This document shows positions 14,727-46,686 of a stretch of 64,000 nt of DNA, piece after piece (position 1 is the stretch's first letter; the number at the start of each line of letters is the position of its first letter). The notes under the pieces are model-generated. The model saw only the letters and a list, made by a program, of their open reading frames with translations, ran no database searches and was not told the origin of the DNA. The stretch comes from Ignavibacteria bacterium (GTDB lineage Bacteria; Bacteroidota; Ignavibacteria; Kapaibacteriales; Kapaibacteriaceae). Made by a program: the position numbers and the translations under genes. The stretch spans positions 78,380-142,379 of the forward strand of contig CANMBE010000004.1 in the NCBI GenBank assembly GCA_947495975.1, written 5' to 3'.

Positions 14727-14824
14727 CATAAGCAAGGAAGGTCGTTCCAGAGTATCAAAGTTACACATCGAAGTTCGTGTGGATAACATTGGTAATCCGT
14801 TCAGGTTGCGTACTTTAGCCCTCT

Positions 14825-15703
14825 ATGCTCGTTCGTGAATTCCAGCGATTAGTTGATGCTGTCTTACCGCCAAAGGCAGCAATGTATGGAGATGCAATTG
14901 GGCTCCAGATAGCATCGAAGCATTCCACAGTAGCTCGCGTGTTGGTTTGCCTTGATGTAACCGAAGAGGTTGTACGTGAGGCAATTGATACAACATGCGA
15001 CACCATTTTAACGTTTCACCCGCTTATTTTTAGTCCTTTAGATCGACTTGATAGGTCAGATCGTGTATCACGATGCGTTAGCGACTGCATTGCTGCAGAC
15101 ATTTCCGTGATCAGCGTTCATACGTCATACGACGCCCTGCCACAAGGTACGAATCACATTCTTGCAACGAAACTAGGGCTTAGCCCTCTAACACCACTTG
15201 TGCCTAATGATGGCATTGCGGGCGGTATGGGGCTTCTTGCATCGTGTGCATTTACCTATAGTGAACTCTTAGAGCGTGTCTCTGACGTCTGCGGCGGTCC
15301 GGTCCGTCATTGCCCCTCGGAAAAAGCCGACGTTCGGTGGGTAGCCATTGTTGCTGGAAGTGGAATGCCCTTCTTCAATGACGCTGTCCGCCTGGAAGCC
15401 GATGTGTTCATAACCGCCGATGTAAAATATCATGCATTTCATGCAGCGCGTGGGGTGATTGGCCTCATGGACCCCGGTCATTTTGAAATGGAACAGTTCG
15501 TTCCAATCGGTTTGATCGAGCTGCTAAGCCCCACGATGCCATCCGTGTTGTTTGTGGAGAGTACGGTGATGACAAATCCTGTACAGTATTCCACTTCCCA
15601 AATGCAAAAAACAAAAACATTTTCTTCTTATCCGCAGGGATCTCATGGAACAGCAGATCAATCTCTTGGCACAACTAACGGTCGTGGACGGGCAGTTAGA
15701 TGA
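14825..15703 (+). CDS. Nif3-family dinuclear-metal-centre protein (GTP cyclohydrolase 1 type 2 homologue)
   Basis: N-terminus 'AAMYGDAIGLQIASKHSTVARVLVCLDVTEEVVREAI...TFHPLIF' and C-terminal 'FITADVKYHAFHAA' His motifs typical of NIF3/YqfO. The low-complexity C-terminal tail overlaps the next gene by 59 nt. Confidence 0.8.
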   Translation: MLVREFQRLVDAVLPPKAAMYGDAIGLQIASKHSTVARVLVCLDVTEEVVREAIDTTCDTILTFHPLIFSPLDRLDRSDRVSRCVSDCIAADISVISVHTSYDALPQGTNHILATKLGLSPLTPLVPNDGIAGGMGLLASCAFTYSELLERVSDVCGGPVRHCPSEKADVRWVAIVAGSGMPFFNDAVRLEADVFITADVKYHAFHAARGVIGLMDPGHFEMEQFVPIGLIELLSPTMPSVLFVESTVMTNPVQYSTSQMQKTKTFSSYPQGSHGTADQSLGTTNGRGRAVR

Positions 15704-16389: not shown

Positions 16390-16856
16390 GATCGATCACC
16401 GGGGGACTCCGGGCGATTGCCTCGAACACGCCCGGCGTGACGAGGAGGAAAGTCCGAACTCCATAGAACAGCACGCTTCTTAACTGGAAGGTGTTAAGCC
16501 CCTTCCCTTCACTGGGTAAGGGGCGAGGCAACGGAAAGTGCAACAGAAAGAAACCGCCGATGGCTGTACTTCGGTGCAGCACAGGTAAGGGTGAAATGGC
16601 AGGGTAAGAGCCTACCAGCGGCTGGGTGACCAGCCGGCTCGGCAAACCCCGTGCGGAGCAAGATCAAGCAGAGATGGAGGCGCTTCGGCGCTGGATGGTT
16701 GTTCGCCCCTTCCGCTTCGGCGGTGCCATCTCGGGTAGATCGCTTGAGACCCTTGGCAACAGAGGTCCTAGAGAAATGATCGCCTCCTTCGGTTCGCCGG
16801 AGAAGACAGAATTCGGCTTATAGGAGTCTCCCAGTGACCGATCATACTCAGCCTGT
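16390..16856 (+). ncRNA. rnpB: RNase P RNA, bacterial type A
   Basis: Universal motifs read directly: 'GAGGAAAGTCCGAACTCCA', 'ACAGAAAGAAACCGCC', 'GGTAAGGGTGAAATGGCAGGGTAAGAGCCTACCAGC', 'GGCAAACCCCGTGCGGAGCAAGATCAAGC', 'ACAGAATTCGGCTTATAGG'. The 5' 'GATCGATCACCGGGGGACTC' pairs with the 3' 'GAGTCTCCCAGTGACCGATC' as the P1 helix. Confidence 0.85.
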
Positions 16857-33899: not shown

Positions 33900-34682
33900 T
33901 CAATGACATTCGTGTACGTGGATGTTGCCTTGCAGGTCTATAGCAATGTATTGTGACGGGTTGTCAGTCCAACAACCTGAGTTCAAATAACGTACGTCAC
34001 CAACCATGATGTCGATTGATCGATGCGTGTGGCCACAGAACACCACGTTGGCTTGGTGTTTCTTCTTTCCAAACAGGGCTGCATCGTGTCCAACTTTATC
34101 ACTAAGCCTTAGCCACTTCTTACTTGTACGCTTTACCCATCGTGAGGCACGGTGCTTAGGGTCAACCTTTTGGATTCCTAGATATATCCATGAGGCAATA
34201 GCAGTAATCACTTCATGCTCAGTGATCCACTTGTCAAATTGATGGCCATGTATTGCTAAATATCGAAGTCCATGTTGCTCCCACACGTATTCTTCGTGTA
34301 CTGGAATGCCAAGCAAGTGTGTGAGTATCTCCGCAACTCCTCCATCATGATTGCCCACAACCCACACTACCTCTATTCCTTTTTTCGGGTTTGATGTTTT
34401 ACGAATGAATGACAGGAACTTCCAATCGTCGCGAGTTAATCGTTTAAAATTCAAATCGTCAAAGACATCGCCATTGAGAATCAGTCTCTTGAATGACAAC
34501 AATCGCAATAGTTCTACGAGCCTTTTTGACCGCGATACATCCGAACCCAGATGTATATCGGAAACGATGATTGTGTCTAGATCGGCAGTGTGATCAAAGT
34601 AGACGGGCTGTAGCTCCTCATCAGAGAAGCTATGCTGCTCTTCACTCTCTGTCGGACTCAAAGGGTCTAAAGGCATGGGCAT
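33900..34682 (-). CDS. Metallophosphoesterase, LpxH-like (UDP-2,3-diacylglucosamine diphosphatase-like)
   Basis: 'VSDIHLG ... GDVFDD ... VVGNHD ... GHQFD ... CGHTH' calcineurin-like metal-ligand series. Last gene of the 33900-42142 operon. Confidence 0.65.
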   Translation of the reverse strand: MPMPLDPLSPTESEEQHSFSDEELQPVYFDHTADLDTIIVSDIHLGSDVSRSKRLVELLRLLSFKRLILNGDVFDDLNFKRLTRDDWKFLSFIRKTSNPKKGIEVVWVVGNHDGGVAEILTHLLGIPVHEEYVWEQHGLRYLAIHGHQFDKWITEHEVITAIASWIYLGIQKVDPKHRASRWVKRTSKKWLRLSDKVGHDAALFGKKKHQANVVFCGHTHRSIDIMVGDVRYLNSGCWTDNPSQYIAIDLQGNIHVHECH

Positions 34683-35400
34683 GCTGCATTAAATAGTTCG
34701 TCGGAAATCGATCATCAATGCCGTAACTACGTGGCTTCTTGTCTGGAGGCAGGTGTGCAGTTCCAAAAAGCCAATCCCACACGGCAATCTTTGTTGAGAA
34801 GTTACGATTATGTGCTTCATCGTCAGTAGCATGGTGCCAGCGATGCATTTCTGGGCCATTAACTACCCACTGAAGCCAGCCGCTTCGTACGTCAATGTTA
34901 GAGTGGATGTACATCCCCCAAATTGCATCAATACAACCCTTGATGACGGCCACTTCAGGGGATGCCAATAACAAGATTGGCAAGAACTCAACGCTCTGAT
35001 TGATTAAGATCTCCAGCGAGTGGGATCTACTTCCGCTCAGCCAATCAACATGCTTGGTAGAATGATGTGCTTCATGAAGTCTCCACAAGAAGGCATTATT
35101 GTGTTGCCATCTGTGAAACCAATAGATATAGAGGTCATGCACAACAAAAAAGATTGCCACTTGCAGCCACAGTGGAAGCGCACGGATTACATGGATACGT
35201 TCAAGATGTGTTGATGCATCAATCCAGCCTGTTACGCCGTATATCACCAATCCTAGCACATAGGTCTGCACAAGACCGTACCAAAAGAAGTCGTTAAAGA
35301 ATCCCTCACGTAGGAGTCTTTGTGATTTGTCATAAGGATAGATCCGCTCTAGGAGCACAAGGGTGCACGCTCCTAGAACGGTAATGACAAATGTCAACAA
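34642..35400 (-). CDS. Fatty acid hydroxylase / sterol desaturase superfamily integral-membrane di-iron enzyme
   Basis: His boxes 'HRWQH', 'HEAHHS', 'HRWHH' with multiple TM segments. Confidence 0.8.
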   Translation of the reverse strand: MLTFVITVLGACTLVLLERIYPYDKSQRLLREGFFNDFFWYGLVQTYVLGLVIYGVTGWIDASTHLERIHVIRALPLWLQVAIFFVVHDLYIYWFHRWQHNNAFLWRLHEAHHSTKHVDWLSGSRSHSLEILINQSVEFLPILLLASPEVAVIKGCIDAIWGMYIHSNIDVRSGWLQWVVNGPEMHRWHHATDDEAHNRNFSTKIAVWDWLFGTAHLPPDKKPRSYGIDDRFPTNYLMQHAHAFRPFESDRE

Positions 35401-35420: not shown

Positions 35421-36386
35421 TCAGGCCGACACCTCTTCTGAACGCACGCGACGCAACTTTGCACGTGCACCCATTTCGCTGTCATACACACGCTTAATGC
35501 CATCACCGAGCGCAGATTCTATATCGCGTATGTCTCGCACCAATCTGCCAAGGCCACCAACTTCAACACTTGCTGCTTGGTCTGTACCCCACATTGCACG
35601 ATCAAGCGTTATGTGGCGCTCAACAAACGTTGCTCCCAAAGCAACAGCGGCGTACGTTGTAGCAAGACCAACTTCGTGTCCTGAATATCCAATAGGAATG
35701 TTCGGGAACTTCTGTTGCAATGTTCTGATCATCGAAAGATTTAACTCGTTCGTTGGGCATGGATAGCTCGACGTTGCATGTGCAATCAGCAAGCGGTCTT
35801 CGTTGAGCGAAGCCACTGCTGTTTCGATCTCTTCCATCGTGGACATACCCGTGGATATCACTAGGGGCTTGCCAGTTGATTGCATTGCACGTAACAAAGC
35901 AATGTCAGTCAGCGAAGCTGATGCCGCTTTGTAGAATGGCACTTCAAAATGCGCCTCCATAAATGCCACCGCTTCTTCATCCCAGCATGAAACGGTCCAG
36001 TCAATACCATTGTCACGGCAATAACTGTCGATCTCACCATAGTCTTCGGCGGTAAACTCTACCTTATGACGATAGTCGATATACGTCATACGACCCCACG
36101 GCGTATCGCGTTCTAGCAACCATTGATCTTTTGGAACACATAGCTCAGGAGTTCTCTTCTGAAACTTCACACAGTCTGCGCCTGCTGCAGCGGCACCATC
36201 AATCATCTTCTTTGTAACGTCTAAAGATCCATTGTGATTGATTCCGATCTCAGCAATGATGTATACCGGCGAAGTTGAGCCGATAGAACGAGTTCCGATA
36301 GATACTGATGCATTCATTACGTCTTCCTCGTAAATATGTGAATCTGAATTGTTGTTCGTCTTTTCACTCATCACCAAGCAGTCCAT
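35421..36386 (-). CDS. NeuB-family sialic-acid-synthase-like PEP-condensing enzyme, apparently lacking the C-terminal SAF domain
   Basis: 'VYIIAEIGINHNGSLDVTKKMI...ADCVKFQ', 'ISTGMSTMEEIETAV', 'GYSGHE' and 'ERHITLD' match the NeuB/PseI/SpsE TIM barrel. The protein ends ~25 aa after the barrel. Confidence 0.8.
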   Translation of the reverse strand: MDCLVMSEKTNNNSDSHIYEEDVMNASVSIGTRSIGSTSPVYIIAEIGINHNGSLDVTKKMIDGAAAAGADCVKFQKRTPELCVPKDQWLLERDTPWGRMTYIDYRHKVEFTAEDYGEIDSYCRDNGIDWTVSCWDEEAVAFMEAHFEVPFYKAASASLTDIALLRAMQSTGKPLVISTGMSTMEEIETAVASLNEDRLLIAHATSSYPCPTNELNLSMIRTLQQKFPNIPIGYSGHEVGLATTYAAVALGATFVERHITLDRAMWGTDQAASVEVGGLGRLVRDIRDIESALGDGIKRVYDSEMGARAKLRRVRSEEVSA

Positions 36387-37180
36387 CCACCGTCTACGAT
36401 GAGATTCTGCCCCGTCATATACCGCGATGCGTCGCCAGCTAAAAAAAGCAGAGCCCCTTTGTAGTCTGTTGCAGAAGCCATTCGGCCAAGTGGTGTTCGT
36501 CTACTGTAGTTATCGATGAAGTGTTGGTCTTGTCCGTTCTCAACGCCACCTGGAGAGAGGCAGTTGGCGCGTACGCCCTGCTTGCCCCAATACGTTGCGA
36601 GAAATTTTGTGAGCATTACAACAGCTCCCTTGCTCGTAGGATATGCGATGCTCTTGAAGAATGTCTGCTCACCAGTTGGCGTTTGGTAAATACTCTGATC
36701 AGGAGCTACAACGCCATACGTTGATGCGATGTTGATGATCGAACCACTGCCGGCTTCTGCCATCATCGATCCTAAAACCTGACACAGAGAGAATACTCCG
36801 GTCACATTTACATCCATAACGCGACGGAAGAGATCAACAGGATAATTTTCAAATCGAGATGATTCAATGGCAGAGAAGGGGCTCTCCACCATGTCATTCA
36901 TCGCAGCGTTGTTGACGAGGATGTCAAGCCTACCCTGTTCGTCAAGAATTCGGAGTTGCAACAATTGTATCGCCTGCCTATCTGTTACATCAAGCGTCAC
37001 TCCCACATGCTCTGGTCCGAGTTGTTGTGCAAGTACTTCAACCGATGTGGCAACAAGGTCACATGCGTATACGATTGCACCCGCGCTTGCGAGAGCGTCA
37101 CAGTGCTGCCTGCCGAGAAGTCCGGTGGCACCAGTAACAACGGCAATCTTACCTTCTAACTGGTTGAGGTCAACACTCAT
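36371..37180 (-). CDS. Short-chain dehydrogenase/reductase (SDR)
   Basis: 'KIAVVTGATGLLG' cofactor-binding motif, 'NNAA' and the Y-x3-K catalytic region. Confidence 0.85.
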   Translation of the reverse strand: MSVDLNQLEGKIAVVTGATGLLGRQHCDALASAGAIVYACDLVATSVEVLAQQLGPEHVGVTLDVTDRQAIQLLQLRILDEQGRLDILVNNAAMNDMVESPFSAIESSRFENYPVDLFRRVMDVNVTGVFSLCQVLGSMMAEAGSGSIINIASTYGVVAPDQSIYQTPTGEQTFFKSIAYPTSKGAVVMLTKFLATYWGKQGVRANCLSPGGVENGQDQHFIDNYSRRTPLGRMASATDYKGALLFLAGDASRYMTGQNLIVDGGWTAW

Positions 37181-38508
37181 ACACCAACGCTCACGTTACG
37201 TGGCTTTGTATTAAAGTTGCTCGTTTTGCGGAATACAGGCTCAACCGGAGTGCCTCTAAGTTTTTCACGGAGTGAACCAGTGAAGACAGCGGCGTGCAGA
37301 AGCTGGAGCACTTCGCGGTACACTTCAAGTGTGAGCATTACATCTTCGTTTGTATGCGCATATGACATGTTGTGGAACCCACCCCATAGGATTCCCCTAG
37401 CAATCATCTCTTGCTGAACATATGACTTCATAAGCAGAGGGTCGGCAACCGATCCATCAAACGCAACTATCGTGCGTGTGCCTAGCCCCTTGCATGTTAC
37501 ATACGTAATCCCAAGGTCAGAAATGATTGTATTAAGTCCATCGCGGAGTTTATCTCCAGTCTCTTCTATGCGGCGCGGTGCATCGTGATCGCGCAGGAAC
37601 TGAATGGTAGCTTTTGCTGCTGCAAGTGAAAGTGCTTCTCCACCAAACGTTGTAAAAAAGAAAACATCATGCTCGCACAATTGCATGATGTCTGCCCTAC
37701 CCGTAAGAATAGAGAGTGGCATCCCATTGGCCACTGCTTTGGAGAAACATGCAAGATCTGCCCGTACGTTAAATCGTTCTTGTGCACCACCAAGGGCGAT
37801 GCGGAATCCTGTCCACATTTCATCAAAGATGAGCAGGATGCCACGCTCATCGCATATCTCACGGAGGGTGTGTAGGAACCCTGCCTGAGGCTCTTCAAAG
37901 ACCATTGGCTCCAAGATGATTGCGGCTGTATCATCATCAATAGCTGCAAGCACACTCTCTGGATCATTGTAGCTAAATGTGTACGTCTGATCTCTTGTTG
38001 ATTGCGGTATTCCTGCGTTGCGATCTGTTGTTCCTATATACCAGTCGTGCCACCCATGATACCCACAACACAACACAGTATTGCGCCCCGTGTATGCACG
38101 CGCAAGTCTGATTGCAGCAGTAGTTACGTCGCATCCCGTTTTTGAATACCGTACACTCTCTGCGTTTGGAACTACGGCGCGTATAATCTCGGCCACTTCT
38201 ACTTCTAGTGGATGCATCAAGGAGAACGTTATACCATCACGAAGCTGGCGCTCAATGGCTCTGTCCACAACCTCATGGCCGTAGCCAAGAATCAGAGGTC
38301 CAACGGCCATTGTATAATCGAGATAGCGGTTCCCATCAACATCCCACAGATGCGCGCCTTTTGCACGGGCAGCGTAGATTGGTGCAACACCCTGTACGTA
38401 TTGTCCGGGACCTTTTGCCAGTGTCTGTGTGAATGCAGGGATCAGGCCTTCTGCGCGTCGAAGCATGTCCTGCGATGCAACGATCGATGGGTAATGTTGA
38501 TCACGCAT
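37177..38508 (-). CDS. Class-III (GSA-aminomutase-like) PLP aminotransferase
   Basis: 'GYGH' N-terminal motif, 'DEMWTGFR' and 'FSKAVANGMP' PLP-lysine region typical of HemL-like class-III aminotransferases. Confidence 0.85.
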   Translation of the reverse strand: MRDQHYPSIVASQDMLRRAEGLIPAFTQTLAKGPGQYVQGVAPIYAARAKGAHLWDVDGNRYLDYTMAVGPLILGYGHEVVDRAIERQLRDGITFSLMHPLEVEVAEIIRAVVPNAESVRYSKTGCDVTTAAIRLARAYTGRNTVLCCGYHGWHDWYIGTTDRNAGIPQSTRDQTYTFSYNDPESVLAAIDDDTAAIILEPMVFEEPQAGFLHTLREICDERGILLIFDEMWTGFRIALGGAQERFNVRADLACFSKAVANGMPLSILTGRADIMQLCEHDVFFFTTFGGEALSLAAAKATIQFLRDHDAPRRIEETGDKLRDGLNTIISDLGITYVTCKGLGTRTIVAFDGSVADPLLMKSYVQQEMIARGILWGGFHNMSYAHTNEDVMLTLEVYREVLQLLHAAVFTGSLREKLRGTPVEPVFRKTSNFNTKPRNVSVGV

Positions 38509-39451
38509 AGGATTGCTCCAGATTGCCGCTTGTTGCCCGCTTGTTACGTGTGTTCTTTATCCGATTTGCAACGAGATCGCCTGATAGACCTTCATGTGCG
38601 AGTACTTCAGGAAGAAGTGCTGGACGGAACCACGTTGTAAATCCAATTGGTAAGACTTCGCACGATTTGCGATTGCGAACGAGACATTCACATAGAATAC
38701 TGTAGAGTCCACCGGTAAGGAAATGATCTTCAAGCGTAACAACAAGATCACTGTTACTCGCCGCATCAAGAAGCCGTGCTTCGTCTATCGGCTTTAATGT
38801 TCGAAGATTTACTACTTGTACTGAGAGACCTTCAGCCGTGAGAATCGAAGCAGCAAGAACTGCTTGGCGCAACAACACGCCATACGTGAGAATAGTAACG
38901 TCCCTACGTCCATCCAGTGGCCCTGCTACAACCTCGGCAACGCCAGGAGTAAATGACGGTGAGTGTTCCACAGCAGCAGGTGCGTTGGTATAGCGCACGT
39001 AATAGGGTTGTCCGCTGAGGATCACGTCTTTGAGGCCGATCTTAAGGTCTTCTTCATCTGCTGGACAGAACACATTGATGTTTGGAATTCCACACATTAA
39101 TCCAACATCATCTATCGCTTGATGTGTTGGGCCGTTAGCATCGCTCAAAACACCCGGGACCATGCCAACCATGATTACCGGGAGATTTGGAATGCCAACA
39201 TCATCACGAATGAACTCAAATGCACGAAGTGTGATGAAAGATGCTAGCGCATGCGTCACAACGATTCGTCCACGCGCAGCAAGACCAGCAGCCATGCCGA
39301 TCATGGTCTGCTCTGCAATTCCTACATCGAGAAATTTGTCGCCGAGTAGCGCTGGCACATTTCGCATGTGACCGCGATTCTCTGCCGTAAGTATCATGAC
39401 GCGTTCATCTGACTGAACGCAGTCGAGTAAGATCGATTCGTAAGGGATCAT
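38501..39451 (-). CDS. Transketolase, C-terminal (pyrimidine-binding + C-terminal domain) subunit of a split enzyme
   Basis: 'FLDVGIAEQTMIGMAAGLA' and 'GPTHQAIDDVGLMCGIPN' transketolase signature segments. Confidence 0.85.
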   Translation of the reverse strand: MIPYESILLDCVQSDERVMILTAENRGHMRNVPALLGDKFLDVGIAEQTMIGMAAGLAARGRIVVTHALASFITLRAFEFIRDDVGIPNLPVIMVGMVPGVLSDANGPTHQAIDDVGLMCGIPNINVFCPADEEDLKIGLKDVILSGQPYYVRYTNAPAAVEHSPSFTPGVAEVVAGPLDGRRDVTILTYGVLLRQAVLAASILTAEGLSVQVVNLRTLKPIDEARLLDAASNSDLVVTLEDHFLTGGLYSILCECLVRNRKSCEVLPIGFTTWFRPALLPEVLAHEGLSGDLVANRIKNTRNKRATSGNLEQSYA

Positions 39452-40305
39452 CGCACCACCAATGTTTCTGAAGTAAGTGTTGCTACAGTCTCGCCGTGCA
39501 ATTCACCAATGAGCGCATCAATCTCGTCATGTGTGAAATTGCAGAACCAGCGATCGGCTCGCTCAGCAATGCTCGGCACGCCATGCCCGCGCTGAGTATC
39601 GGCGATTACTACTGTTGGCATTCCGTTGCGATTCGGGATCCGCTTGAATACTTCATCCAGATCTGCAAAATCATGACCATCTGCTTTTTCTACATTCCAT
39701 CCGAATGCTTCAAACTTTATGGCAAGGGGCTCAAGAGGTATCAGTTCTTCAGTGCGCGTATTTGCCTGAAAATGGTTGCGATCAACTACAGCGATCAGAT
39801 TATCGGCGCGCAATGCGTGCGCCGTAAGGCAAGCTTCCCATACGCTGCCTTCGTTGAGTTCACCGTCGCCCAGAATCACAACAACATTACTATCTACCCC
39901 ACGCATTCTCATATCGATGGCCATTCCTAGGCCTACACTTAGTAGGTGGCCAAGAGAGCCTGAGTGAAATTCTACACCCGGGATATTCCGATTGGGGTGC
40001 CAATAGATATCGTCGTGCACTCGAAGGTGATTCTTCAATCTGTCGCCTGTGATGTACCCTAGTTCAGCAAAGACTCCATAGAGTGCGGGAACATCATGCC
40101 CCTTTGATAACAAGAGAATATCTCGATCGGGAGAATTGAGAGTATCTGGTGTGATGTGCAAGTACTGTGTGTACAGATATACAAGGAGATCAGCACATGA
40201 GAGCGATGCACCAGTGAAACAGCCACCGTCAGTGGACATGCGTAAGATGTGTTCTCGCACGCGAAGAGCAATTGCTGGAAGTTGGGCTAGAGTGTGTGAG
40301 GTCAT
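39448..40305 (-). CDS. Transketolase, N-terminal (TPP-binding) subunit of a split enzyme
   Basis: 'SKGHDVPALY' and 'ILGDGELNEGSVWEA' TPP-binding motifs. 4-nt overlap with the C-terminal subunit gene. Confidence 0.85.
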   Translation of the reverse strand: MTSHTLAQLPAIALRVREHILRMSTDGGCFTGASLSCADLLVYLYTQYLHITPDTLNSPDRDILLLSKGHDVPALYGVFAELGYITGDRLKNHLRVHDDIYWHPNRNIPGVEFHSGSLGHLLSVGLGMAIDMRMRGVDSNVVVILGDGELNEGSVWEACLTAHALRADNLIAVVDRNHFQANTRTEELIPLEPLAIKFEAFGWNVEKADGHDFADLDEVFKRIPNRNGMPTVVIADTQRGHGVPSIAERADRWFCNFTHDEIDALIGELHGETVATLTSETLVVR

Positions 40306-41132
40306 ACTGGTTGTGAATGTGATGGATAGTCGCGCGTATGCCGCTCATCAATTGTTTTTAGTTGGTCTATGTGATTACGGTACCAGTTCACACCTGCCAA
40401 GTGTGCATTCGCACCAGCTACTTCGGGGTGATCAATCAAAAACGAAAGAATCTTTGCTGTGCTAAATCGAGGATGTATGAGGTAGAGATTATCGTAGATG
40501 GCTTTCATGAGCACGTAGTCCTCGGGATAGTCAATCGTCCAGCGATGACTCATGCTAAGGTCGAGACCGTTACTCCAAGAAACATTCGAAACCCTTACTT
40601 CAGGATTGTTATCCCACATCCAGGGAGTTGTATGCTCTCGCTCGTGTGGTTGTTCTGCCGCATGCCACGCTCGCTCTAGCACCTTCATGCTCATCACTTC
40701 AACGTCATTACCATCGGGCCATGTACCTGGATGAAGATTGCTGACGTAGTCCACCGAGTCTACGTTATCGATATACGCACCAATGACTGCATCAATAACT
40801 GAAGGATCAATGAGTGGACAGTCAGAAGGGATTTTTACAACCACATCGGCTTGATACGCAAGTGCCGCACGGTAATGCCTATCCAACAAATCTGTTGAGT
40901 GTCCCCTAAACACGTTGTATCCCGCATCAGCACATGTGTTCGCTAGAACGTCATCGCATGTTTCTTCTGTTGTAGCCACAACTATTTGTGTGGCAAGTCT
41001 TGATTGAGCTACTCTCTCAAGAAACCTCAGGATAAGGGGCTGTCCAGCCAAGGGCAGCAGCACCTTCCGTGGAAGGCGTGTAGATCCAAGTCGAGCTTGG
41101 CATACAATGATGATTCGCAAAACGGTCACGAC
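40302..41132 (-). CDS. SpsF/NeuA-type cytidylyltransferase (CMP-sugar synthetase family)
   Basis: 'IVCQARLGSTRLPRKVL' is the SpsF-type variant of the acylneuraminate cytidylyltransferase P-loop. Start set near the motif; the ATG at 41204 would add 24 aa and overlap the upstream gene by 79 nt. Confidence 0.7.
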   Translation of the reverse strand, partial: VVTVLRIIIVCQARLGSTRLPRKVLLPLAGQPLILRFLERVAQSRLATQIVVATTEETCDDVLANTCADAGYNVFRGHSTDLLDRHYRAALAYQADVVVKIPSDCPLIDPSVIDAVIGAYIDNVDSVDYVSNLHPGTWPDGNDVEVMSMKVLERAWHAAEQPHEREHTTPWMWDNNPEVRVSNVSWSNGLDLSMSHRWTIDYPEDYVLMKAIYDNLYLIHPRFSTAKILSFLIDHPEVAGANAHLAGVNWYRNHIDQLKTIDERHTRDYPSHSQPV

Positions 41133-42142
41133 ATACTTCCTGCATAAACACGTGGCAAAGTCACGGCGATTTGTAAGCCCAATGTGTCCAACACTTCTTG
41201 GCACACAGCTGCAATGTTCTCACCAGATTTGCCACTGTTTTGAACCGGGCATAGTTCCTTCAGTGTTTCGATTGGGAAATCGCTATGTACTGTTTTTCCA
41301 AGTGCAATGCCAACGTATACACACGATGAGTACTTGGTGATCAGTGTATCGCAGCTTGCGATAAGGGGCTCAATAGGCCTACCATGTAGGATAGTTGATT
41401 GCGGCGCCCAGCGCTCTATCTCGGCGATGGCTCTATCAATTTGTTCATTTGGATGAAGTTTGAATATTACTTCTTTGCCATTTGCAATCGCGAGTGCACG
41501 ATCAATCGTTGTCTTTCGACTTTCGTATTTAAATGTCTCGCGTGCATCGCTCGTGGCAACGAGAACGAAGCCTTTTCGCTCATACGGCTGGGCTGCGTAC
41601 TCCACACAGTTATCAAAGTTTGGAATTCCTGTCACAACAAGTTTGCGACTGCGTGCCCCTTTTCGTATAAAGTGTGTTTTGTATCCCTCCGAAGCAACAC
41701 ACATGCGCATATACGCGTCAGACATGCCAAATGTAGACGTCGATGCCAGGTATCGTGGCAATCCGAGATACTTCACGAGGTAATACGCCATGTTTTCAGG
41801 ATCAGTCATTCCTTCCTGAACCAACACAACGCGTCCGTGGCGGATGTTCTTGGGCACAACAAGATCACTACACGTCACCACAAGGTCATACATGTGGCGG
41901 GATCCACGAAAGTCTATCTGTTTACCGTGGAGCTCTAGGAAGCCGAGGGCACGCGATTGGTGTCCTTGTCCGGCAACCGTCCACTCTATAAGTTTCTTTC
42001 GCTCAAGGATGCCAATAAACCCATCAGTGTAGTGTGGTGTAAACCAGCAATCATGATGCGCCAAGTGTTGGGATATCTTCTCCATCATAGTGGTTTGGTT
42101 CATGGAACCACAAATGAAGAGGATTCTACGGCGTGTTCTCAT
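41126..42142 (-). CDS. Hypothetical protein, first gene of the sugar operon; possible glycosyltransferase-fold (PseG/SpsG-like?) enzyme
   Basis: 338 aa, no signal peptide, alternating alpha/beta character ('ILFICGSMNQ...', 'RKLVVTGIPNFD'). The assignment rests on size and operon context only. Confidence 0.35.
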   Translation of the reverse strand: MRTRRRILFICGSMNQTTMMEKISQHLAHHDCWFTPHYTDGFIGILERKKLIEWTVAGQGHQSRALGFLELHGKQIDFRGSRHMYDLVVTCSDLVVPKNIRHGRVVLVQEGMTDPENMAYYLVKYLGLPRYLASTSTFGMSDAYMRMCVASEGYKTHFIRKGARSRKLVVTGIPNFDNCVEYAAQPYERKGFVLVATSDARETFKYESRKTTIDRALAIANGKEVIFKLHPNEQIDRAIAEIERWAPQSTILHGRPIEPLIASCDTLITKYSSCVYVGIALGKTVHSDFPIETLKELCPVQNSGKSGENIAAVCQEVLDTLGLQIAVTLPRVYAGSMS

Positions 42143-42327
42143 GCGCTATTACTACCTATACGTGGTTCGGCGAAACATTCAACTCGCGAACTTCACCGTA
42201 TAACATCACGCATATGTAACGCCAACATCAACGAATTGTAGCACGTAAAGCCCCAATAATGAAAGGGGCGTAGCGCATTATCCACAAGCACACTTTAGGG
42301 TGGCCACCAAAACACGTAACAATTTGG

Positions 42328-43353
42328 TTACGGTTGCTGCCACGCAGGGTTTGTTAGGACACTCGAATCAGTAAGTGCCTTCATAAAGGCAACGAGCGAA
42401 GCCTTCTCTGGATCGGTTAACCCAAGCTTCTTTACACGAGGGTCTTTGTTGGGGAACGGAGTGCCCCCATCATTATAATGATCCACAACTTGTTCAAGCG
42501 TTGTAAGGAGCCCCTTCTCACTGTCTCCTGTTGCCATATACGGAGGACTAAGGGCCACATTTCGCAGCGTTGGTGTTTTGAATTTTCCTTCGTCTAGAGG
42601 ATCCTTTGTCACATTATACCTACCACGATCAAAATAGTGGTGGAACAACCCCACATTATGGAAGAGGTCGTCTGTGAGGTCAGGCCCACTATGACAAGAG
42701 CTGCACAGTGCCTTGCTGCTGAAGAACAACTGCATGCCTTTACGCTCTAGCGCCGATAAGGCATTGAGATGTCCTTGCAAGAAACGATCGTATCTACTGT
42801 TAGCACTTACAATTGTCCGCTCAAACGTGGCAACGGCTTGCATTACGCGTGGCATCGAAACTGAAGTGTCCCCGAAAGCAGCGAGCCATTTTGCGCGATA
42901 CACATCAGAGCGCAGCAACACAGCAACTGCGAACGTGTCAGCCTGCATCTCTGCCGAATTCAAGAATGCTCCCATCGCCTGCTCTTCAAGTGTAGAAGCT
43001 CTGCCATCCCAGAACATCATCTTTCGATACCCTACGTTCACAATCATTGGTGCGTTGCGCAGGCCTCTCGCTCCTTGCACACCCTGGCTTACTTGATTGG
43101 GCGCATCAGAAAATGATTGCGCAGCAACGTGGCAGGAAGCGCACGCAATTGTACCTTCATTTGAAAGTCGCTTGTCGTAAAAGAGATGACGCCCTAGATC
43201 AACCTTTTCACGCGTGATCACATTATTGGCTGGGTACACCATAGCCGGGAGATGTGCCGGCACCGACGGAAATTGTTCTTCCAACGGCTGCACGGGATCA
43301 CTGGCGCAGCCAGCGATCAAAACAAAAACGGCAACAATTGGTATGTATCTCAC
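42328..43353 (-). CDS. Di-haem cytochrome c peroxidase (CCP/MauG family), lipoprotein
   Basis: Two CxxCH sites ('CASCHVAAQ', 'CSSCHSGPD'), 'FHN' and 'MAT' ligand regions, and an 'LIAGC' lipobox. Confidence 0.85.
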   Translation of the reverse strand: MRYIPIVAVFVLIAGCASDPVQPLEEQFPSVPAHLPAMVYPANNVITREKVDLGRHLFYDKRLSNEGTIACASCHVAAQSFSDAPNQVSQGVQGARGLRNAPMIVNVGYRKMMFWDGRASTLEEQAMGAFLNSAEMQADTFAVAVLLRSDVYRAKWLAAFGDTSVSMPRVMQAVATFERTIVSANSRYDRFLQGHLNALSALERKGMQLFFSSKALCSSCHSGPDLTDDLFHNVGLFHHYFDRGRYNVTKDPLDEGKFKTPTLRNVALSPPYMATGDSEKGLLTTLEQVVDHYNDGGTPFPNKDPRVKKLGLTDPEKASLVAFMKALTDSSVLTNPAWQQP

Positions 43354-44198
43354 AGCTGAGCAAGATCCTCGAGTTTCGAAATGAATTCTTGAGCTTCGCG
43401 ACCTTTTAAGCCTGCTGCTTCAAGAATAGAATCTTCGGGCGTACCTGAAATTAACATCGAGCGTATGGCCAGGAGTTCCTTACGAGAGAACCTCTGCGCA
43501 TGCAGCATGTAGTCTTCAAAGGCTTCATATGCCATCGGGACAGCAGCACGCACTATCTCTGCCATTGCCTGACCGTATACGCGAATCTCATATTGTGCGT
43601 GCGCGTCAATGCGCAAGCGCAAAAAATGGAAGAGATTGTGCAGGTTAACCTTCCAATACCATTCAGTGTAATTGGAAACAGGCAGATTGATGCGAGCAAT
43701 TTCACGAGCCAAGTTGGTACCAAGCAAATCCTGGTATTCCGCATAGAGCGTATCCTGCGTATCAGACATAAGTGTACGAATGCGTTCTGCCTCTTCAGGA
43801 GCGAACAAATCATCTGACCTGCCCTGCTTATTCGTAACGCTTTGCGCGCGCACCTGGTCGGGTGCTGGCACGTAGAACTCGTCCTTCATTTCCGAGTATC
43901 TGCCAGAATATTCATTCACGTTTGCCGTGCGGTGACGGATCCACTGGCGCGCAACAAAGATTGGGAGCTTAACATGGAACTTAAACTCCACCATCTCAAA
44001 TGGTGTGGTGTGGATATGGCGCATGAGATAACGTATGAGTCCACGATCTTCGAGCACCTTCTTTGTGCCCGCTCCATATGAAACCCGGGCTGCCTGCACA
44101 ATGGCAGAGTCGTCCCCCATTACGTCAATGAGACGCACGAATCCTTTATCGAGGCAAGGAAACTCCTTGCCGAGCAATGCTTGTACCTGTTCTGTCAT
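43350..44198 (-). CDS. thyX: Flavin-dependent thymidylate synthase
   Basis: 'RQWIRHRTANVNEYSGRY' ThyX RHR...S..Y signature. Start taken at the internal M 'MTEQVQALL'; the track ORF extends 63 aa further upstream. Confidence 0.8.
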   Translation of the reverse strand: MTEQVQALLGKEFPCLDKGFVRLIDVMGDDSAIVQAARVSYGAGTKKVLEDRGLIRYLMRHIHTTPFEMVEFKFHVKLPIFVARQWIRHRTANVNEYSGRYSEMKDEFYVPAPDQVRAQSVTNKQGRSDDLFAPEEAERIRTLMSDTQDTLYAEYQDLLGTNLAREIARINLPVSNYTEWYWKVNLHNLFHFLRLRIDAHAQYEIRVYGQAMAEIVRAAVPMAYEAFEDYMLHAQRFSRKELLAIRSMLISGTPEDSILEAAGLKGREAQEFISKLEDLAQL

Positions 44199-44589
44199 AG
44201 GCACAAAGATAGAGTCCCGTGTCCGTAGATTGACGTCAGAAATCAACAGATCAATTCTAGAGGGCACAAATGGGCGGTTTTCGGCTGCTGTGTGGTGCTT
44301 TTTTGATGCTGTGTAGCTCAGTCTTTGTGCCTCAGATGTTGGCAGGGGGCGATGGGCCACGCACATTTGAGACTTTTCGTGACACACCCTTAGCCGCCGA
44401 GATCGATAGTTCCACGGTTAGACAGGTTAGTAGCCTTGTGTTCGAAGACGGCCTCATAACAATCAGTCTCGATAGCGGCAGGAAGGACAACGTACGGATG
44501 AGCGTAGAAATCGTCTTCAAATTGGCACCTCGCGATACGTAAGATTTTTACGGAACGTGCATATTCGGAAGCATACAAAACACACTATG

Positions 44590-45060: not shown

Positions 45061-46686
45061 CTACAGCGTTACAGTACTCTCGTTGACCGATTCAAGAGCG
45101 CGACTCATTGCTGCGAGTGCTTGTGTTGCAAGTGCACCGTCAATAACGCGGTGATCGTAGGTGATGGATAGATAAACCATACTACGAATAACGATAACGT
45201 CTTCACCATCGAGTTCGCGAACAACTGGACGTTTTTGGATAGCACCAATGCCAATGATAGCTGTCTGTGGTTGATTGATTACAGGCGTTCCAAACAGCGA
45301 GCCAAATGACCCAACGTTTGTAACAGTAATTGTGCCGCCAGAGATATCATCTGGCGTAAGCTTCTTTGAACGTGCGCGCAGTGCAAGGTCATTCATCACA
45401 CGTCCAACACCAGTGATGTTGAGTGTGTCTGCATTCTTGATCACTGGCACTATCAGATTGCCATCTGGCAACGCCGTTGCCATTCCAAGATGAACACGCT
45501 TGTGTTGAATGATGTTCTTTCCATCAACACTTACATTGATTCGTGGGTATGCCTTTACACCCTCACATACAGCCCAACCAAAGAATGGGTTGTATGTAAG
45601 CTTAAAGCCTTCACGCTTTTGAAAACTATCTTTATACTTTTCTCGGAGCTTCACAATTCCGGTAACGTCAACTTCTGCTACACTCGTTACATGTGCAGAT
45701 GTTTGCTTTGAACGCGTCATGTGCTCAGAGATGAGCTGACGCATGCGATCCATCGGAATGATCTCAGATTCGCCACCAGCCATCGGAGCATTTAAAACAA
45801 GCGCTAGAGCCGTAGCCGCTGGAGCAGGTGCAATTGCAAGCGCTGCCACATGCCCATTCCCACGCTTGGCTAAAAATGCCTGAACATCAGTTTTTGTCAC
45901 ACGCCCTTCAAGACCAGTTCCTGTGATCGCATCTAGTTCACCAACGCTGATATTCTCGGATGCAGAGATACTTCGTACAAGGGGCGAATAGAATCTCCCA
46001 CCCGATTGACGAGGCACTGCTCCATGCACAGTGGCTTGCAAAGGCGCTTGCGCAGGTGCTGAAACGGGTGCTGAAACGGGTGCTGAAACGGGTGCTGAAA
46101 CAGTACCTGAAACAGCTATGCGCGCAACCACTTTCCCAACTTCAACCACATCACCCTCATTTGCGAGTACTGCAGACAATACTCCTGCAGTTGGCGATGG
46201 CACCTCGGTGTCGACTTTGTCAGTAGAGATTTCAAGGAGCACTTCGTCTCGCTCAACCTTGTCTCCTAATTTCTTAACCCAACGAAGTACCGTGCCCTCT
46301 TGAATTGATTCACCCATCTTTGGCATTACTACTTCAACGTCGCCCGCTCCAGTCAATGGCGCTGGCGCATTCGCTAGCGCAGTCGCTGGCACTGGCACTG
46401 GCACTGGCGCAGTCGCTGGCACTGGCGCAGTCGCTGGCACTGAAACCGATTCTCCGTTAAGAACCACAATCACCTTTCCAACTTCAACTACATCGCCTTC
46501 GGCGAAGAGAATCTGCGAGATTACGCCGGCCGATGGAGACGGAACTTCCGTGTCCACTTTATCCGTAGAGATCTCAACGATTACTTCATCTCGTTCAACC
46601 TTGTCTCCAACTTTTTTGACCCATCGAAGAATCGTTCCTTCTTGGATTGATTCTCCCATCTTTGGCATCACTACTTCAACGCTCAT
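45061..46686 (-). CDS. 2-oxo-acid dehydrogenase E2 (dihydrolipoamide acyltransferase) with two lipoyl domains, likely the pyruvate dehydrogenase E2
   Basis: Two 'EISTDKVDTEVPSP' lipoyl-lysine domains, a peripheral subunit-binding domain 'SPLVRSISASE', and the catalytic 'DHRVIDGA'. Confidence 0.88.
   Translation of the reverse strand: MSVEVVMPKMGESIQEGTILRWVKKVGDKVERDEVIVEISTDKVDTEVPSPSAGVISQILFAEGDVVEVGKVIVVLNGESVSVPATAPVPATAPVPVPVPATALANAPAPLTGAGDVEVVMPKMGESIQEGTVLRWVKKLGDKVERDEVLLEISTDKVDTEVPSPTAGVLSAVLANEGDVVEVGKVVARIAVSGTVSAPVSAPVSAPVSAPAQAPLQATVHGAVPRQSGGRFYSPLVRSISASENISVGELDAITGTGLEGRVTKTDVQAFLAKRGNGHVAALAIAPAPAATALALVLNAPMAGGESEIIPMDRMRQLISEHMTRSKQTSAHVTSVAEVDVTGIVKLREKYKDSFQKREGFKLTYNPFFGWAVCEGVKAYPRINVSVDGKNIIQHKRVHLGMATALPDGNLIVPVIKNADTLNITGVGRVMNDLALRARSKKLTPDDISGGTITVTNVGSFGSLFGTPVINQPQTAIIGIGAIQKRPVVRELDGEDVIVIRSMVYLSITYDHRVIDGALATQALAAMSRALESVNESTVTL
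46056..46115. repeat. 12-nt tandem repeat (5 copies) encoding the (PAPV/SAPV)n inter-domain linker of E2
   Basis: 'GGTGCTGAAACG' x3, then GGTGCTGAAACA and GTACCTGAAACA. Confidence 0.7.
46372..46442. repeat. 6/18-nt tandem repeats (CACTGG / GCGCAGTCGCTGGCACTG) encoding the first E2 linker
   Basis: '...GCAGTCGCTGGCACTGGCACTGGCACTGGCGCAGTCGCTGGCACTGGCGCAGTCGCTGGCAC'. Confidence 0.7.

Follow-up and report, generated by a model that had tools for sequence, protein, structure and literature searches.

The two adjacent genes described here probably encode a single two-subunit ThDP-dependent enzyme of the transketolase (TK) fold, re-tooled for a non-canonical substrate and working in a dedicated sugar pathway towards a CMP-activated amino-ulosonic acid. 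They lie in a 64-kb stretch of DNA from a Kapaibacteriaceae genome, analysed here as a whole and called the window. The pair is part of a module consisting of a cytidylyltransferase, the TK-like alpha and beta subunits, a class-III aminotransferase, a short-chain dehydrogenase/reductase (SDR), a phosphatase and a NeuB-type synthase. This module is widespread and apparently undescribed; we found no description of it in the searchable literature.

The gene pair and its active site

The first-pass annotation of this DNA reported two adjacent ORFs for the TPP half (285 aa) and the pyrimidine/C-terminal half (316 aa) of a split transketolase. Its coordinates are exact, both ORFs are on the minus strand, and Pfam agrees with the division. 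The alpha subunit (39448-40305), with the ThDP/Mg-binding PP domain, matches PF00456 Transketolase_N (E 4e-29) and, weakly, E1_dh models. The beta subunit (38501-39451) matches PF02779 Transket_pyr (E 1.5e-24) and, as a second domain, PF02780 Transketolase_C (E 2e-18), so that the two chains together make up the three-domain architecture PP, Pyr, C. The 4-nt overlap reported for the ORFs can be read in the junction GTG CGA TGA TCC, where the alpha stop and the beta ATG share ATGA. Among solved structures, the split-gene transketolase of Carboxydothermus hydrogenoformans, 6YAK/6YAJ, is the best match to both subunits (E 1e-44 and 2e-39). No second TK or DXS was found in the 64-kb window, and public metagenome assemblies already contain an identical 285-aa protein. 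Databases name the proteins of this family 'transketolase', while some NCBI members are called 'DXP synthase N-terminal domain-containing protein'.

Everything required for cofactor binding is present. Alignment to E. coli TktA finds the Mg/ThDP motif GDG-X(25-30)-N intact in alpha (D147...N177), together with His70 (E. coli His66) and His103 (His100); in beta, Glu47 corresponds to the cofactor-activating Glu411 and His110 to His473. All six residues are invariant across the family, conservation being scored over 25 alpha and 69 beta sequences. The situation is different for the residues that handle the sugar. In a transketolase a pair of histidines (His26 and His261 in E. coli, His30 and His263 in yeast) contacts the donor C3-OH and the acceptor aldehyde oxygen, and Asp469 reads the acceptor C2-OH. 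In three independent alignments (with the C. hydrogenoformans, human and E. coli enzymes) His26 is replaced by Phe30, and His261 by Trp253/Phe254; Among 25 family members and the marine variants described below, there is no exception to Phe30 and Trp253-Phe254. The sugar-phosphate clamp is gone as well. The position of Arg358 falls at or before Met1 of beta and has no conserved equivalent, those of Ser385, His461 and Arg520 carry variable non-basic residues in the 69 beta sequences, and in the same set Asp469 has become an invariant Asn106. A TAENR motif replaces the phosphate-binding loop in beta.

Because the residues needed for sugar-phosphate ketol transfer are missing, the label 'transketolase' has to be given up; with both catalytic histidines and the phosphate clamp gone, what stands of it is membership in the TK/DXS superfamily. 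Judged by its active site, then, the enzyme is a member of that superfamily and not a pentose-phosphate transketolase. In a representative library of 1.84 billion proteins, the (C/S)F...WF signature occurs only in the nearest representatives, whereas about 125 next-nearest ones retain the first His and, at the second site, have a His in one of the two neighbouring positions. By these sequences the signature marks a sharply delimited clade.

The operon and the conserved module

The pair belongs to a tightly packed, translationally coupled minus-strand operon running from 42142 to 33900, with gene overlaps of 4-16 nt that fit co-translation. All genes named in the following are on this strand. 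The 185-nt intergenic region on the 5' side (42143-42327) is the likely promoter region: a terminator-like hairpin (42332-42315) is followed by one sigma-70-like match (42306-42277), which is weak consensus evidence. A search of this upstream region against Rfam matched no family, the TPP riboswitch included.

The first gene (41126-42142) encodes a 338-aa protein, GT338, which has neither a Pfam nor an NCBIfam match. Its AlphaFold2 model (pLDDT 85.7) has two Rossmann domains in a GT-B fold, and Foldseek matches it to UDP-GlcNAc 2-epimerases, the TagF teichoic-acid polymerase and a capsule polymerase solved with CMP, with modest similarity (TM about 0.5-0.6, 12-14% identity). Some homologues have weak PF04464/PF02350 matches and the name 'CDP-glycerol glycerophosphotransferase family'. 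We regard GT338 as a putative transferase using the activated sugar. It precedes the cytidylyltransferase gene in most FCB-type loci and is missing from the marine variants in polysaccharide loci.

The cytidylyltransferase (40302-41204; PF02348 CTP_transf_3, E 5e-28) resembles CMP-sugar synthetases of the KdsB/NeuA/SpsF family. It matches KdsB and PseF models in part, staying below the cut-off of every specific one. Its homologues have 260-275 aa, and its true start is probably the GTG at 41129, overlapping the upstream stop as GTGA. Behind the TK-like genes, and overlapping the beta gene by 8 nt, is the gene of a class-III (GSA-aminomutase-like) PLP aminotransferase (37177-38508; PF00202, E 1e-48). 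Its top NCBIfam match, PRK06209, scores 368 bits and does not reach the cut-off of 486 bits; its relatives in the PDB are GSAMs, an aminopentol aminotransferase and aminoglycoside C-6' aminotransferases. The SDR follows (36371-37180; PF13561 and PF00106), for which the closest NCBIfam models, all below cut-off, are sugar-acid dehydrogenases (gluconate 5-DH, KduD) and PRK09186.

The NeuB-type PEP:aldehyde condensing synthase (35421-36386; PF03102, E 5e-75, spanning residues 61-298 of 321) has no C-terminal SAF domain. Alignment finds in it equivalents of N. meningitidis NeuB Glu25, Lys53, Gln55, His215 and His236, which we take to be the metal and PEP-binding residues (Gunawan et al. 2005). In structure it comes closest to SpsE and to 6NCS, a 290-aa Leptospira NeuB that also lacks SAF. 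A KdsB/NeuA-family CMP-sugar synthetase and, its missing SAF domain aside, a PEP:aldose condensing synthase of the kind expected in a CMP-ulosonic acid module are thus both present. Next comes an integral-membrane di-iron hydroxylase of the fatty acid hydroxylase superfamily (FAH; 34642-35400; PF04116, E 1e-29), distant from OlsE, with the His boxes HRWQH, HEAHH and HRWHH and hydrophobic segments; a hydroxylase gene comes after NeuB in 58 of 67 non-redundant loci.

The last gene encodes a metallophosphoesterase (33900-34682; PF00149), and the window has no KdsC-family HAD gene. Among 66 non-redundant loci, 39 have a HAD gene only (between the SDR and NeuB genes), 14 a metallophosphoesterase only, 13 neither and none both. 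The HAD proteins belong to the KdsC family (TIGR01670, above cut-off) and score 150-167 bits against the KDN-9-P phosphatase model, whose cut-off is 180. We propose that the metallophosphoesterase does the phosphatase step that is done by the KdsC-like HAD enzyme in other lineages.

The first-pass annotation spoke of a sugar-nucleotide operon. This is accurate insofar as the operon also holds a cytidylyltransferase and a NeuB-type synthase; however, it is a NeuB/CMP-ulosonic-acid module rather than an NDP-hexose O-antigen cluster. The enzymes of NDP-hexose nonulosonic routes (4,6-dehydratase, DegT aminotransferase, acetyltransferase, NeuC/hydrolysing 2-epimerase) were found neither in the operon nor in the module, and GT338 is only remotely GT-B/epimerase-like in fold and is dispensable in the marine variants. 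The known routes to nonulosonic acids (Neu5Ac, legionaminic, pseudaminic) were considered as a source of the precursor and rejected, since the UDP-/GDP-GlcNAc enzyme families are missing.

About 60 of 80 species-representative genomes share the gene order GT-CTP-TKa-TKb-AT-SDR-(HAD)-NeuB-FAH. The hosts include Kapaibacteria, Ignavibacteria, Chlorobiota MAGs, Hymenobacter (Bacteroidota), Fibrisoma, Saprospiraceae, Promineifilum and Chloroflexi, among others, and the module is usually accompanied by the GT-B protein and the membrane hydroxylase. As a point against the reading preferred below, some genomes have GT-CTP-TKa without the remaining module genes within 10 kb. Wherever the contig reaches them, module genes are present in 25 of 25 metagenome loci with Phe30; Trp-Phe is found at 253-254 in 24 of these, and in the last the alignment ends before the site. 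None of the metagenome loci that keep His at position 30 has the cassette. Marine metagenomes contain a diverged CTP-TKa-TKb-AT-SDR-HAD-NeuB copy inside Wza/Wzz/Wzx/Wzy polysaccharide loci, with 33-56% identity, the same active-site signature and neither the GT-B nor the hydroxylase gene. On this evidence the seven genes act as a sugar-supply unit complete in itself. The TK-like proteins share 65-83% identity across phyla, unusual for a housekeeping gene, which suggests that the module moves as a unit. It had been claimed earlier that the enzyme has a dedicated biosynthetic role rather than a housekeeping one; the conserved gene order, the marine Wzx/Wzy copy and the lost ketol-transfer residues all bear this out.

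A possible pathway and its competitors

The product, as inferred from the gene set, is most likely an amino sugar acid in activated form, destined for the cell surface. In the scheme we prefer, the module would lead from central metabolites to a 3-deoxy-2-ulosonic (sialic/Kdo-like) acid. NeuB would condense PEP with an aldose (phosphate), the phosphatase would take off the phosphate, and the cytidylyltransferase would form the CMP-sugar. Work on the carbon skeleton would be shared by the SDR, the TK-like enzyme and the aminotransferase, and a dedicated C-C step by the TK-like enzyme is, in our opinion, the best reading. The SDR would make a carbonyl, the TK-like enzyme would add a ThDP-bound two-carbon unit to it, and the aminotransferase would turn the new keto group into an amine. 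The acceptor of the TK-like enzyme would not be a sugar phosphate, which would explain why the phosphate clamp is lost and the acceptor pocket remodelled. In the Kapaibacteriaceae genome the activated sugar would be transferred by the GT-B protein. A membrane lipid or a lipid-linked glycan is the probable acceptor, and the neighbouring membrane hydroxylase would act on it too.

The order of the steps and the exact reaction of the TK-like enzyme are speculative. We know of no natural ulosonic acid that carries the additional C2-amino unit predicted here. With both acid/base histidines lost, the enzyme could just as well catalyse another type of reaction, for example a decarboxylation, an imine-forming cleavage or an acyl transfer, and a family-specific His114 may or may not compensate for the loss. 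Further, the GT-B protein is as similar to TagF-type phosphotransferases and to 2-epimerases as it is to glycosyltransferases; hence the activated species could be a CDP-linked alcohol phosphate instead of a CMP-ulosonate.

Among the alternatives, we regard as rather unlikely, while taking it seriously, that the TK-like step precedes NeuB and prepares NeuB's aldehyde substrate by making or trimming an unusual sugar phosphate. The module is self-contained and has no NDP-hexose enzymes, therefore the precursor must come from central metabolites. Two versions can be imagined. By aminoshikimate (AHBA) logic, an oxidoreductase, an aminotransferase and a phosphatase would act first, and the TK would then cleave an amino-ketose to an imino-aldose, which would condense with PEP. 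Indeed, the module parallels the rifamycin AHBA enzyme set, which consists of a dehydrogenase, an aminotransferase, a phosphatase, a TK and a PEP-aldol synthase; however, the isomerase that this version requires is not in the module. In a DXS-like version, pyruvate and an aldose phosphate would give a 1-deoxy-ketose that is aminated, dephosphorylated and oxidised at its far end, ending in an ulosonic acid of the 9-deoxy-8-amino type. Beta scores nearly equally against DXS and TK models, and its Arg76 aligns with DXS Arg398. On the other hand, the sugar-phosphate residues of TK and DXS (Arg358/His461/Arg520; DXS Arg478) are missing, as is the histidine pair that DXS keeps (His49 and His299), which argues against any ordinary sugar-phosphate acceptor or donor. 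A 2-oxo-acid decarboxylase can do without the histidines that handle C3-OH and aldehyde oxygen, and this is the attraction of a further route that we nevertheless hold to be improbable. The 2-keto-3-deoxy acid phosphate made by NeuB would be decarboxylated to an aldehyde by the TK-like enzyme and then aminated to a primary amine by the aminotransferase, by analogy with phosphonopyruvate decarboxylase and AEP transaminase; the cytidylyltransferase would form a CDP-alcohol, a CDP-activated amino-polyol, from which the TagF-like GT-B protein would move the phospho-amino-polyol to a lipid or glycan. The translational coupling of the TK-like genes to an omega-transaminase-type enzyme would suit it, as would the structural match of GT338 to TagF and the occasional CDP-glycerol annotation of its homologues. 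But the KdsC/KDN-9-P-type phosphatase of most loci would strip the needed phosphate, CTP_transf_3 enzymes typically activate ulosonic acids, and in the marine variants GT338 is missing and the Wzx/Wzy loci around them polymerise sugar repeat units.

An ordinary split-gene transketolase of the non-oxidative pentose phosphate pathway, placed in the operon by chance, is already disfavoured, and we give it hardly any credence. Split housekeeping transketolases do exist, one of them, from C. hydrogenoformans, is the best structural match (E 1e-44), and the database name points the same way. Yet that enzyme, like the human and E. coli ones, keeps the catalytic histidines and phosphate-binding residues that are gone here, and the genes keep to a single biosynthetic module in different phyla and also within polysaccharide loci, at an identity that a housekeeping gene would not be expected to show. 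We find it just as hard to believe in an E1-like component that uses a lipoyl-E2 or a carrier protein to acylate the new amino group (with acetyl or glycolyl), like QncN/QncL in quinocarcin biosynthesis or the E1-type enzymes of some LPS loci. A lipoyl-E2 acyltransferase gene lies 5 kb upstream (45061-46686), alpha has its weak E1_dh matches, and the module has no N-acyltransferase for the presumed amine. However, thyX and a cytochrome c peroxidase gene separate the E2 gene from the operon, the gene is syntenic in 9 close relatives only and was not found flanking the other loci examined, and the module has no carrier protein. The cognate lipoyl-E2 expected alongside a 2-oxo acid dehydrogenase E1 is thus absent from the module.

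Returning to the preferred reading, C-C bond formation on the way to a CMP-activated amino-ulosonic acid, it is tempting to go further and see in the seven-gene module an undescribed NDP-hexose-independent route from central metabolites to a new amino-ulosonic acid, with a chemistry so far undocumented for the transketolase fold. We offer this stronger claim only tentatively and doubt it more than we believe it. The new product may be chain-extended or C-branched, and candidates for the chemistry are, for example, ketol addition to a non-phosphorylated keto/aldehydo sugar acid or cleavage to an imine. If true, a new GT-B transferase would attach the product to a membrane lipid that the linked di-iron hydroxylase modifies, giving the FCB group a widespread, unrecognised acidic aminoglycolipid, and marine bacteria would build the same sugar into a capsule or O-antigen.

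Relation to known systems

The C. hydrogenoformans TK (6YAK/6YAJ) is divided in the same way, with an alpha of about 285-310 aa (PP) and a beta of about 316-341 aa (Pyr, C), and shares with the window enzyme the ThDP/Mg motif, the cofactor-activating Glu and the His473 equivalent. But it keeps GHPGG, WHG, tH, EDG and GRS (His26, His261, His461, Asp469, Arg520), whereas the window enzyme reads GCFTGA, RWF and ANG at the first, second and fourth of these sites and has variable residues at the third and fifth. DXP synthase is of the same superfamily, and beta scores 129 bits against TIGR00204 and 142 bits against TK models. However, it is a single chain of ~620 aa in an isoprenoid context, while the window enzyme is split and in a sugar module. 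E. coli DXS His49, Asp427 and Arg478 are replaced by Phe, Asn and a variable residue, only the equivalents of Arg398 and His431 being kept. Identity with DXP synthase was rejected on these grounds.

The CMP-Kdn and CMP-Kdo pathways (e.g. the Bacteroides thetaiotaomicron KDN-9-P synthase/phosphatase) likewise use a PEP-condensing synthase, a CTP_transf_3 enzyme and, as in related loci of the module, a small type-C0 HAD phosphatase. The module differs from them by three extra obligatory enzymes (TK-like, class-III aminotransferase, SDR), and the window by a NeuB without SAF domain and a metallophosphoesterase in place of the HAD gene. In the Kdo8N pathway of Shewanella, the KdnB oxidase and KdnA aminotransferase act on Kdo before CMP activation; as proposed here, a hydroxyl of an ulosonic acid is oxidised and the carbonyl transaminated to give an amino-ulosonic acid. 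Its oxidase is an Fe-dependent alcohol dehydrogenase, though, where the module has an SDR, and it involves no ThDP enzyme.

A parallel in logic is that of miharamycin and amipurimycin, where split-gene TKs are proposed, although this is undemonstrated, to add a hydroxyacetyl unit to a keto sugar after an oxidoreductase has acted; 13 further examples of split-gene TKs come from Streptomyces BGCs (PMC12247030). The suggestion of the first-pass annotation that the pair supplies a two-carbon ketol unit or makes a branched sugar may have its precedent in these enzymes. There too a split TK belongs to a sugar-tailoring set with the oxidoreductase first, which is thought to create the carbonyl acceptor, and a dedicated role outside the pentose phosphate pathway is proposed (PMC12247030). 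Compared by description, the actinomycete clusters make secondary metabolites and act on sugars linked to nucleosides, whereas the window module has a NeuB/CMP-ulosonate setting and belongs to FCB-group and marine bacteria.

The split pair and its operon

The two adjacent minus-strand ORFs that the first-pass annotation read as transketolase halves are indeed present as claimed, at 39448-40305 (alpha subunit, 285 aa) and 38501-39451 (beta subunit, 316 aa). The claimed 4-nt overlap is borne out as well: the junction reads ...GTG CGA TGA TCC..., where ATGA contains both the stop of one ORF and the start of the other. The alpha ORF matches PF00456, the transketolase thiamine-diphosphate-binding domain (E 4e-29), and among solved structures the pair is closest to the Carboxydothermus hydrogenoformans transketolase, likewise encoded by split genes (6YAK/6YAJ, E 1e-44 and 2e-39). 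No other transketolase or DXS homologue occurs within the 64-kb window.

The pair lies in the middle of an operon of nine minus-strand genes, running from 42142 to 33900 with overlaps of 4-41 nt or gaps of at most 20 nt. The first gene (41126-42142) encodes a 338-aa protein without a Pfam match, which we call GT338. It is followed by a cytidylyltransferase (CTP_transf_3), which probably starts at GTG 41129 and so shares GTGA with the stop codon before it. After alpha and beta come a class-III aminotransferase similar to glutamate-1-semialdehyde aminomutase, an SDR (short-chain dehydrogenase), a SAF-less synthase of the NeuB type, a di-iron membrane hydroxylase belonging to the fatty-acid-hydroxylase superfamily and a metallophosphoesterase (33900-34682). 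The nearest database relatives are Candidatus Kapaibacteria MAGs. No Rfam family, the TPP riboswitch included, was matched in or near the operon, and on this ground we set aside its control by a riboswitch or regulatory RNA; the sole Rfam match in the window is a bacterial class A RNase P RNA at 16401-16836 on the plus strand (247 bits).

Directly upstream, at 42328-44387 (minus strand), are genes for an MbnH/MauG-like di-haem cytochrome c peroxidase and thyX, the latter called as a 345-aa ORF with a long N-terminal extension; their synteny with the operon is limited to Kapaibacteria-type loci. Further upstream, at 45061-46686 (minus strand), the E2 component of a 2-oxo acid dehydrogenase, which has two lipoyl domains and linkers rich in Ala and Pro, was considered as a partner of the transketolase-like pair and rejected, because its synteny is limited to nine close relatives, which places it outside the module.

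The substrate site

HMMER alignments against the C. hydrogenoformans and human enzymes and MAFFT alignments against TktA and DXS of E. coli MG1655 all agree. The cofactor site is kept: alpha has the GDG...N Mg/ThDP motif (Asp147, Asn177), His70 (E. coli His66) and His103 (His100), and beta has Glu47 (Glu411) and His110 (His473). In the yeast and E. coli transketolases His26 and His261 touch the aldehyde oxygen of the acceptor and the C3-OH of the donor, while Arg358, Ser385, His461 and Arg520 form the substrate-phosphate clamp and Asp469 reads the C2 hydroxyl. In the alpha subunit His26 is replaced by Phe30 and His261 by Trp253-Phe254. The Arg358 position falls where the beta subunit begins, the positions of Ser385, His461 and Arg520 hold variable, mostly non-polar residues in beta, and Asp469 has become Asn106. 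In the alignment E. coli DXS has His49, Asp427 and Arg478 at the corresponding sites, hence the transketolase-like enzyme is no DXS either.

Phe30, Trp253 and Phe254 are invariant in 25/25 alpha subunits (65-82% identical), as are the TAENR motif, Asn106 and His110 in 69/69 beta subunits; the family also has two invariant histidines of its own, His114 and His120, within an EFHSGSLGH motif. Judged from these alignments, the substitutions are family traits and not a peculiarity of the window sequence. Its predicted fold and cofactor site place the enzyme in the transketolase superfamily; judged by the residues that define catalysis and substrate binding, it is neither a transketolase nor a DXS.

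A search of 1.84 billion representative proteins, the clusters being drawn at 50% identity, reduced the family to essentially one full-length representative (409 bits), followed by a few intermediates at 42-54% identity and, from about 210 bits, by a broad plateau of ordinary split or fused transketolases. The pattern (C/S)F...WF is limited to the nearest representatives, while about 125 further ones have a first-site His and another His at one or other of the two neighbouring second-site positions. Since a single-chain alpha-beta fusion with the same Phe/Trp-Phe/TAENR/ANGPTHQ signature exists (P0244, 674 aa, from a high-GC organism), the split is not universal. Another protein, P0002 (423 aa), has an internal duplication and seems to be an assembly chimera. 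For sister clades with a similar substitution (P0250, P0252, P0254, P0255) the metagenome scan gave no alternative contexts, only the main family and His-type transketolases.

A portable gene module

The metagenome scan gave 80 loci. At all 25 with Phe30 the module genes are present wherever the contig reaches, and 24 of these 25 have Trp-Phe at 253-254 (the alignment of the remaining one, L114, ends before the site); the cassette is found at none of the metagenome loci with His at this position. The signature marks out a clade, and the clade in turn a gene context. Among the best 80 species-representative loci, about 60 have the order GT338, cytidylyltransferase, alpha, beta, aminotransferase, SDR, NeuB, hydroxylase; their hosts are Kapaibacteria, Ignavibacteria, Chlorobiota MAGs, Hymenobacter, Fibrisoma, Saprospiraceae, Chitinophagaceae, Promineifilum and other bins. 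A pattern scan of species-representative genomes returned at least 599 stretches; the family occurs in at least 80 of the species-representative genomes examined and has thousands of related proteins in public data.

In some Ignavibacteria MAGs (L033 at 10898-13030; L049, L064) a gene of about 2-3 kb, which in L033 encodes a 710-aa TPR and histidine-kinase protein, lies between alpha and beta, so the halves are not always translationally coupled. Reduced loci in Flavobacteriales, Competibacteraceae, Bacteroidota and Ignavibacteria bins (L003/L016, L017, L026, L040, L052, L060, L076, L085) have GT338, cytidylyltransferase and alpha, whereas beta, aminotransferase, SDR and NeuB are all missing from the surrounding 10 kb; in these bins the module may have been scattered or be in decay. 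Several loci whose synteny is almost that of the Kapaibacteria or Hymenobacter type carry the labels Candidatus Didemnitutus, Patescibacteria and Janthinobacterium lividum (MAGs; L007, DATGWS010000113.1; L013/L015; L069); the labels probably stem from mis-binned contigs. Ordinary split transketolases with the second catalytic His (L115, AH/WH; L154, GN/WH) lie a few kb from NeuB-like genes, as does that of L131 (GH; second site not covered), so more than one kind of transketolase may accompany ulosonic-acid clusters.

Most lineages have a small HAD gene between SDR and NeuB (e.g. L035 at 14703-15230, L065 at 13953-14516), scoring above the KdsC-family cut-off and just under that for KDN-9-phosphate phosphatase. 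Among 66 non-redundant loci, 39 have only the HAD gene, 14 (the window included) only the metallophosphoesterase, 13 neither and none both. This exclusion suggests non-orthologous replacement of one phosphatase step, as a hint, since the loci are phylogenetically related.

In marine (Tara) metagenomes a diverged core (cytidylyltransferase, alpha, beta, aminotransferase, SDR, HAD, NeuB) lies inside classical polysaccharide loci with Wza, Wzz, Wzx and Wzy among its neighbours. Its proteins are 33-56% identical to those of the window and have the same active-site signature. Because GT338 and the hydroxylase are absent from these loci, the seven genes behave as a portable sugar-supply module, and GT338 and the hydroxylase are lineage-specific 'usage' genes. 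In two marine loci a gene set for phosphonate decoration comes after the module (17281-20855 in L171, 13679-17253 in L172): it encodes a fusion of cytidylyltransferase and PEP mutase, a ThDP enzyme like phosphonopyruvate decarboxylase, an Fe-alcohol dehydrogenase and a CDP-alcohol phosphatidyltransferase.

Proposed role and known systems

These comparisons show that a predicted ThDP enzyme with a remodelled substrate site is an obligatory member of a NeuB/phosphatase/CMP-synthetase module. In the alignment NeuB has counterparts of Glu25, Lys53, Gln55, His215 and His236 of the N. meningitidis enzyme, so condensation of PEP with an aldehyde should persist. The SDR and an omega-type aminotransferase are always in the module, and the NDP-hexose enzymes of the sialic, legionaminic and pseudaminic acid routes are absent from it. 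We infer that the product is a CMP-activated amino-ulosonic acid made from central metabolites. The scheme we prefer is one of tailoring: a carbonyl created by the SDR would receive a ThDP-bound C2 unit from the transketolase-like enzyme, and the resulting ketone would be aminated by the aminotransferase. The scheme uses all three enzymes and would account both for the missing phosphate clamp and for the change in the acceptor pocket. It fits, too, the sole literature precedent found, miharamycin and amipurimycin, where split-gene transketolases placed after an oxidoreductase have been proposed, though never shown, to attach a hydroxyacetyl group to a keto sugar (PMC12247030).

Other roles deserve consideration. 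The pair might instead build the precursor, by AHBA-like amino-ketose cleavage or DXS-like formation of a 1-deoxy-ketose; we regard this as possible, though rather unlikely. GT338 is predicted to have a GT-B fold (pLDDT 85.7); its structural neighbours, all of low identity, are TagF, UDP-GlcNAc 2-epimerases and a capsule polymerase whose structure was solved with CMP, and some homologues are annotated 'CDP-glycerol glycerophosphotransferase family'. That the NeuB product is decarboxylated en route to a CDP-amino-polyol, handled by the TagF-like GT338, is in our opinion improbable, and that the pair is an E1-like acyl donor is hardly to be expected. A plain housekeeping transketolase is very unlikely, the active site and the gene context both being contrary to it. 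The hydroxylase has three His boxes, and its hydrophobic segments too point to a substrate embedded in the membrane. The hydrophobic substitutions make it attractive to think of a sphingoid-like 2-amino-1,3-diol made from a fatty aldehyde by the transketolase-like enzyme and the aminotransferase; we disfavour this idea, since the module also occurs in Wzx/Wzy loci without lipid genes.

If our reading of the pair and its module is correct, a large family is mislabelled 'transketolase' or 'DXP synthase domain protein' by automatic annotation and, given how widespread it is, metabolic reconstructions may wrongly count the pair as a pentose-phosphate enzyme in these organisms. It would further mean a new logic for surface sugars of the sialic-acid/Kdo family, a ThDP-dependent C-C step plus transamination starting from central metabolites, and a naturally occurring transketolase scaffold whose acceptor site is hydrophobic and does not depend on phosphate, as sought in protein engineering. 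Environmentally abundant Ignavibacteria, Kapaibacteria, Saprospiraceae, Hymenobacter and marine bacteria would then carry an uncharacterised surface glycoconjugate.

The full-text literature searched, which leaves most subscription journals outside its coverage, gave no description of the module, and an earlier one is possible. An Actinoplanes EPS cluster has an annotated split transketolase adjoining aminotransferases (PMC13390465), and Chlorobium is credited with a neuraminic-acid-containing aminoglycosphingolipid (Jensen 1991, as cited in PMC11762602). A link to the latter is unsupported: the sole 'Prosthecochloris' locus is a MAG whose proteins fall in singleton clusters without named isolate relatives. 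We know of no ThDP enzyme in any known ulosonic acid pathway. In its synthase-phosphatase-cytidylyltransferase core the module is like the Kdo and Kdn pathways, and in its logic of oxidising and then transaminating it is like the Kdo8N pathway of Shewanella.
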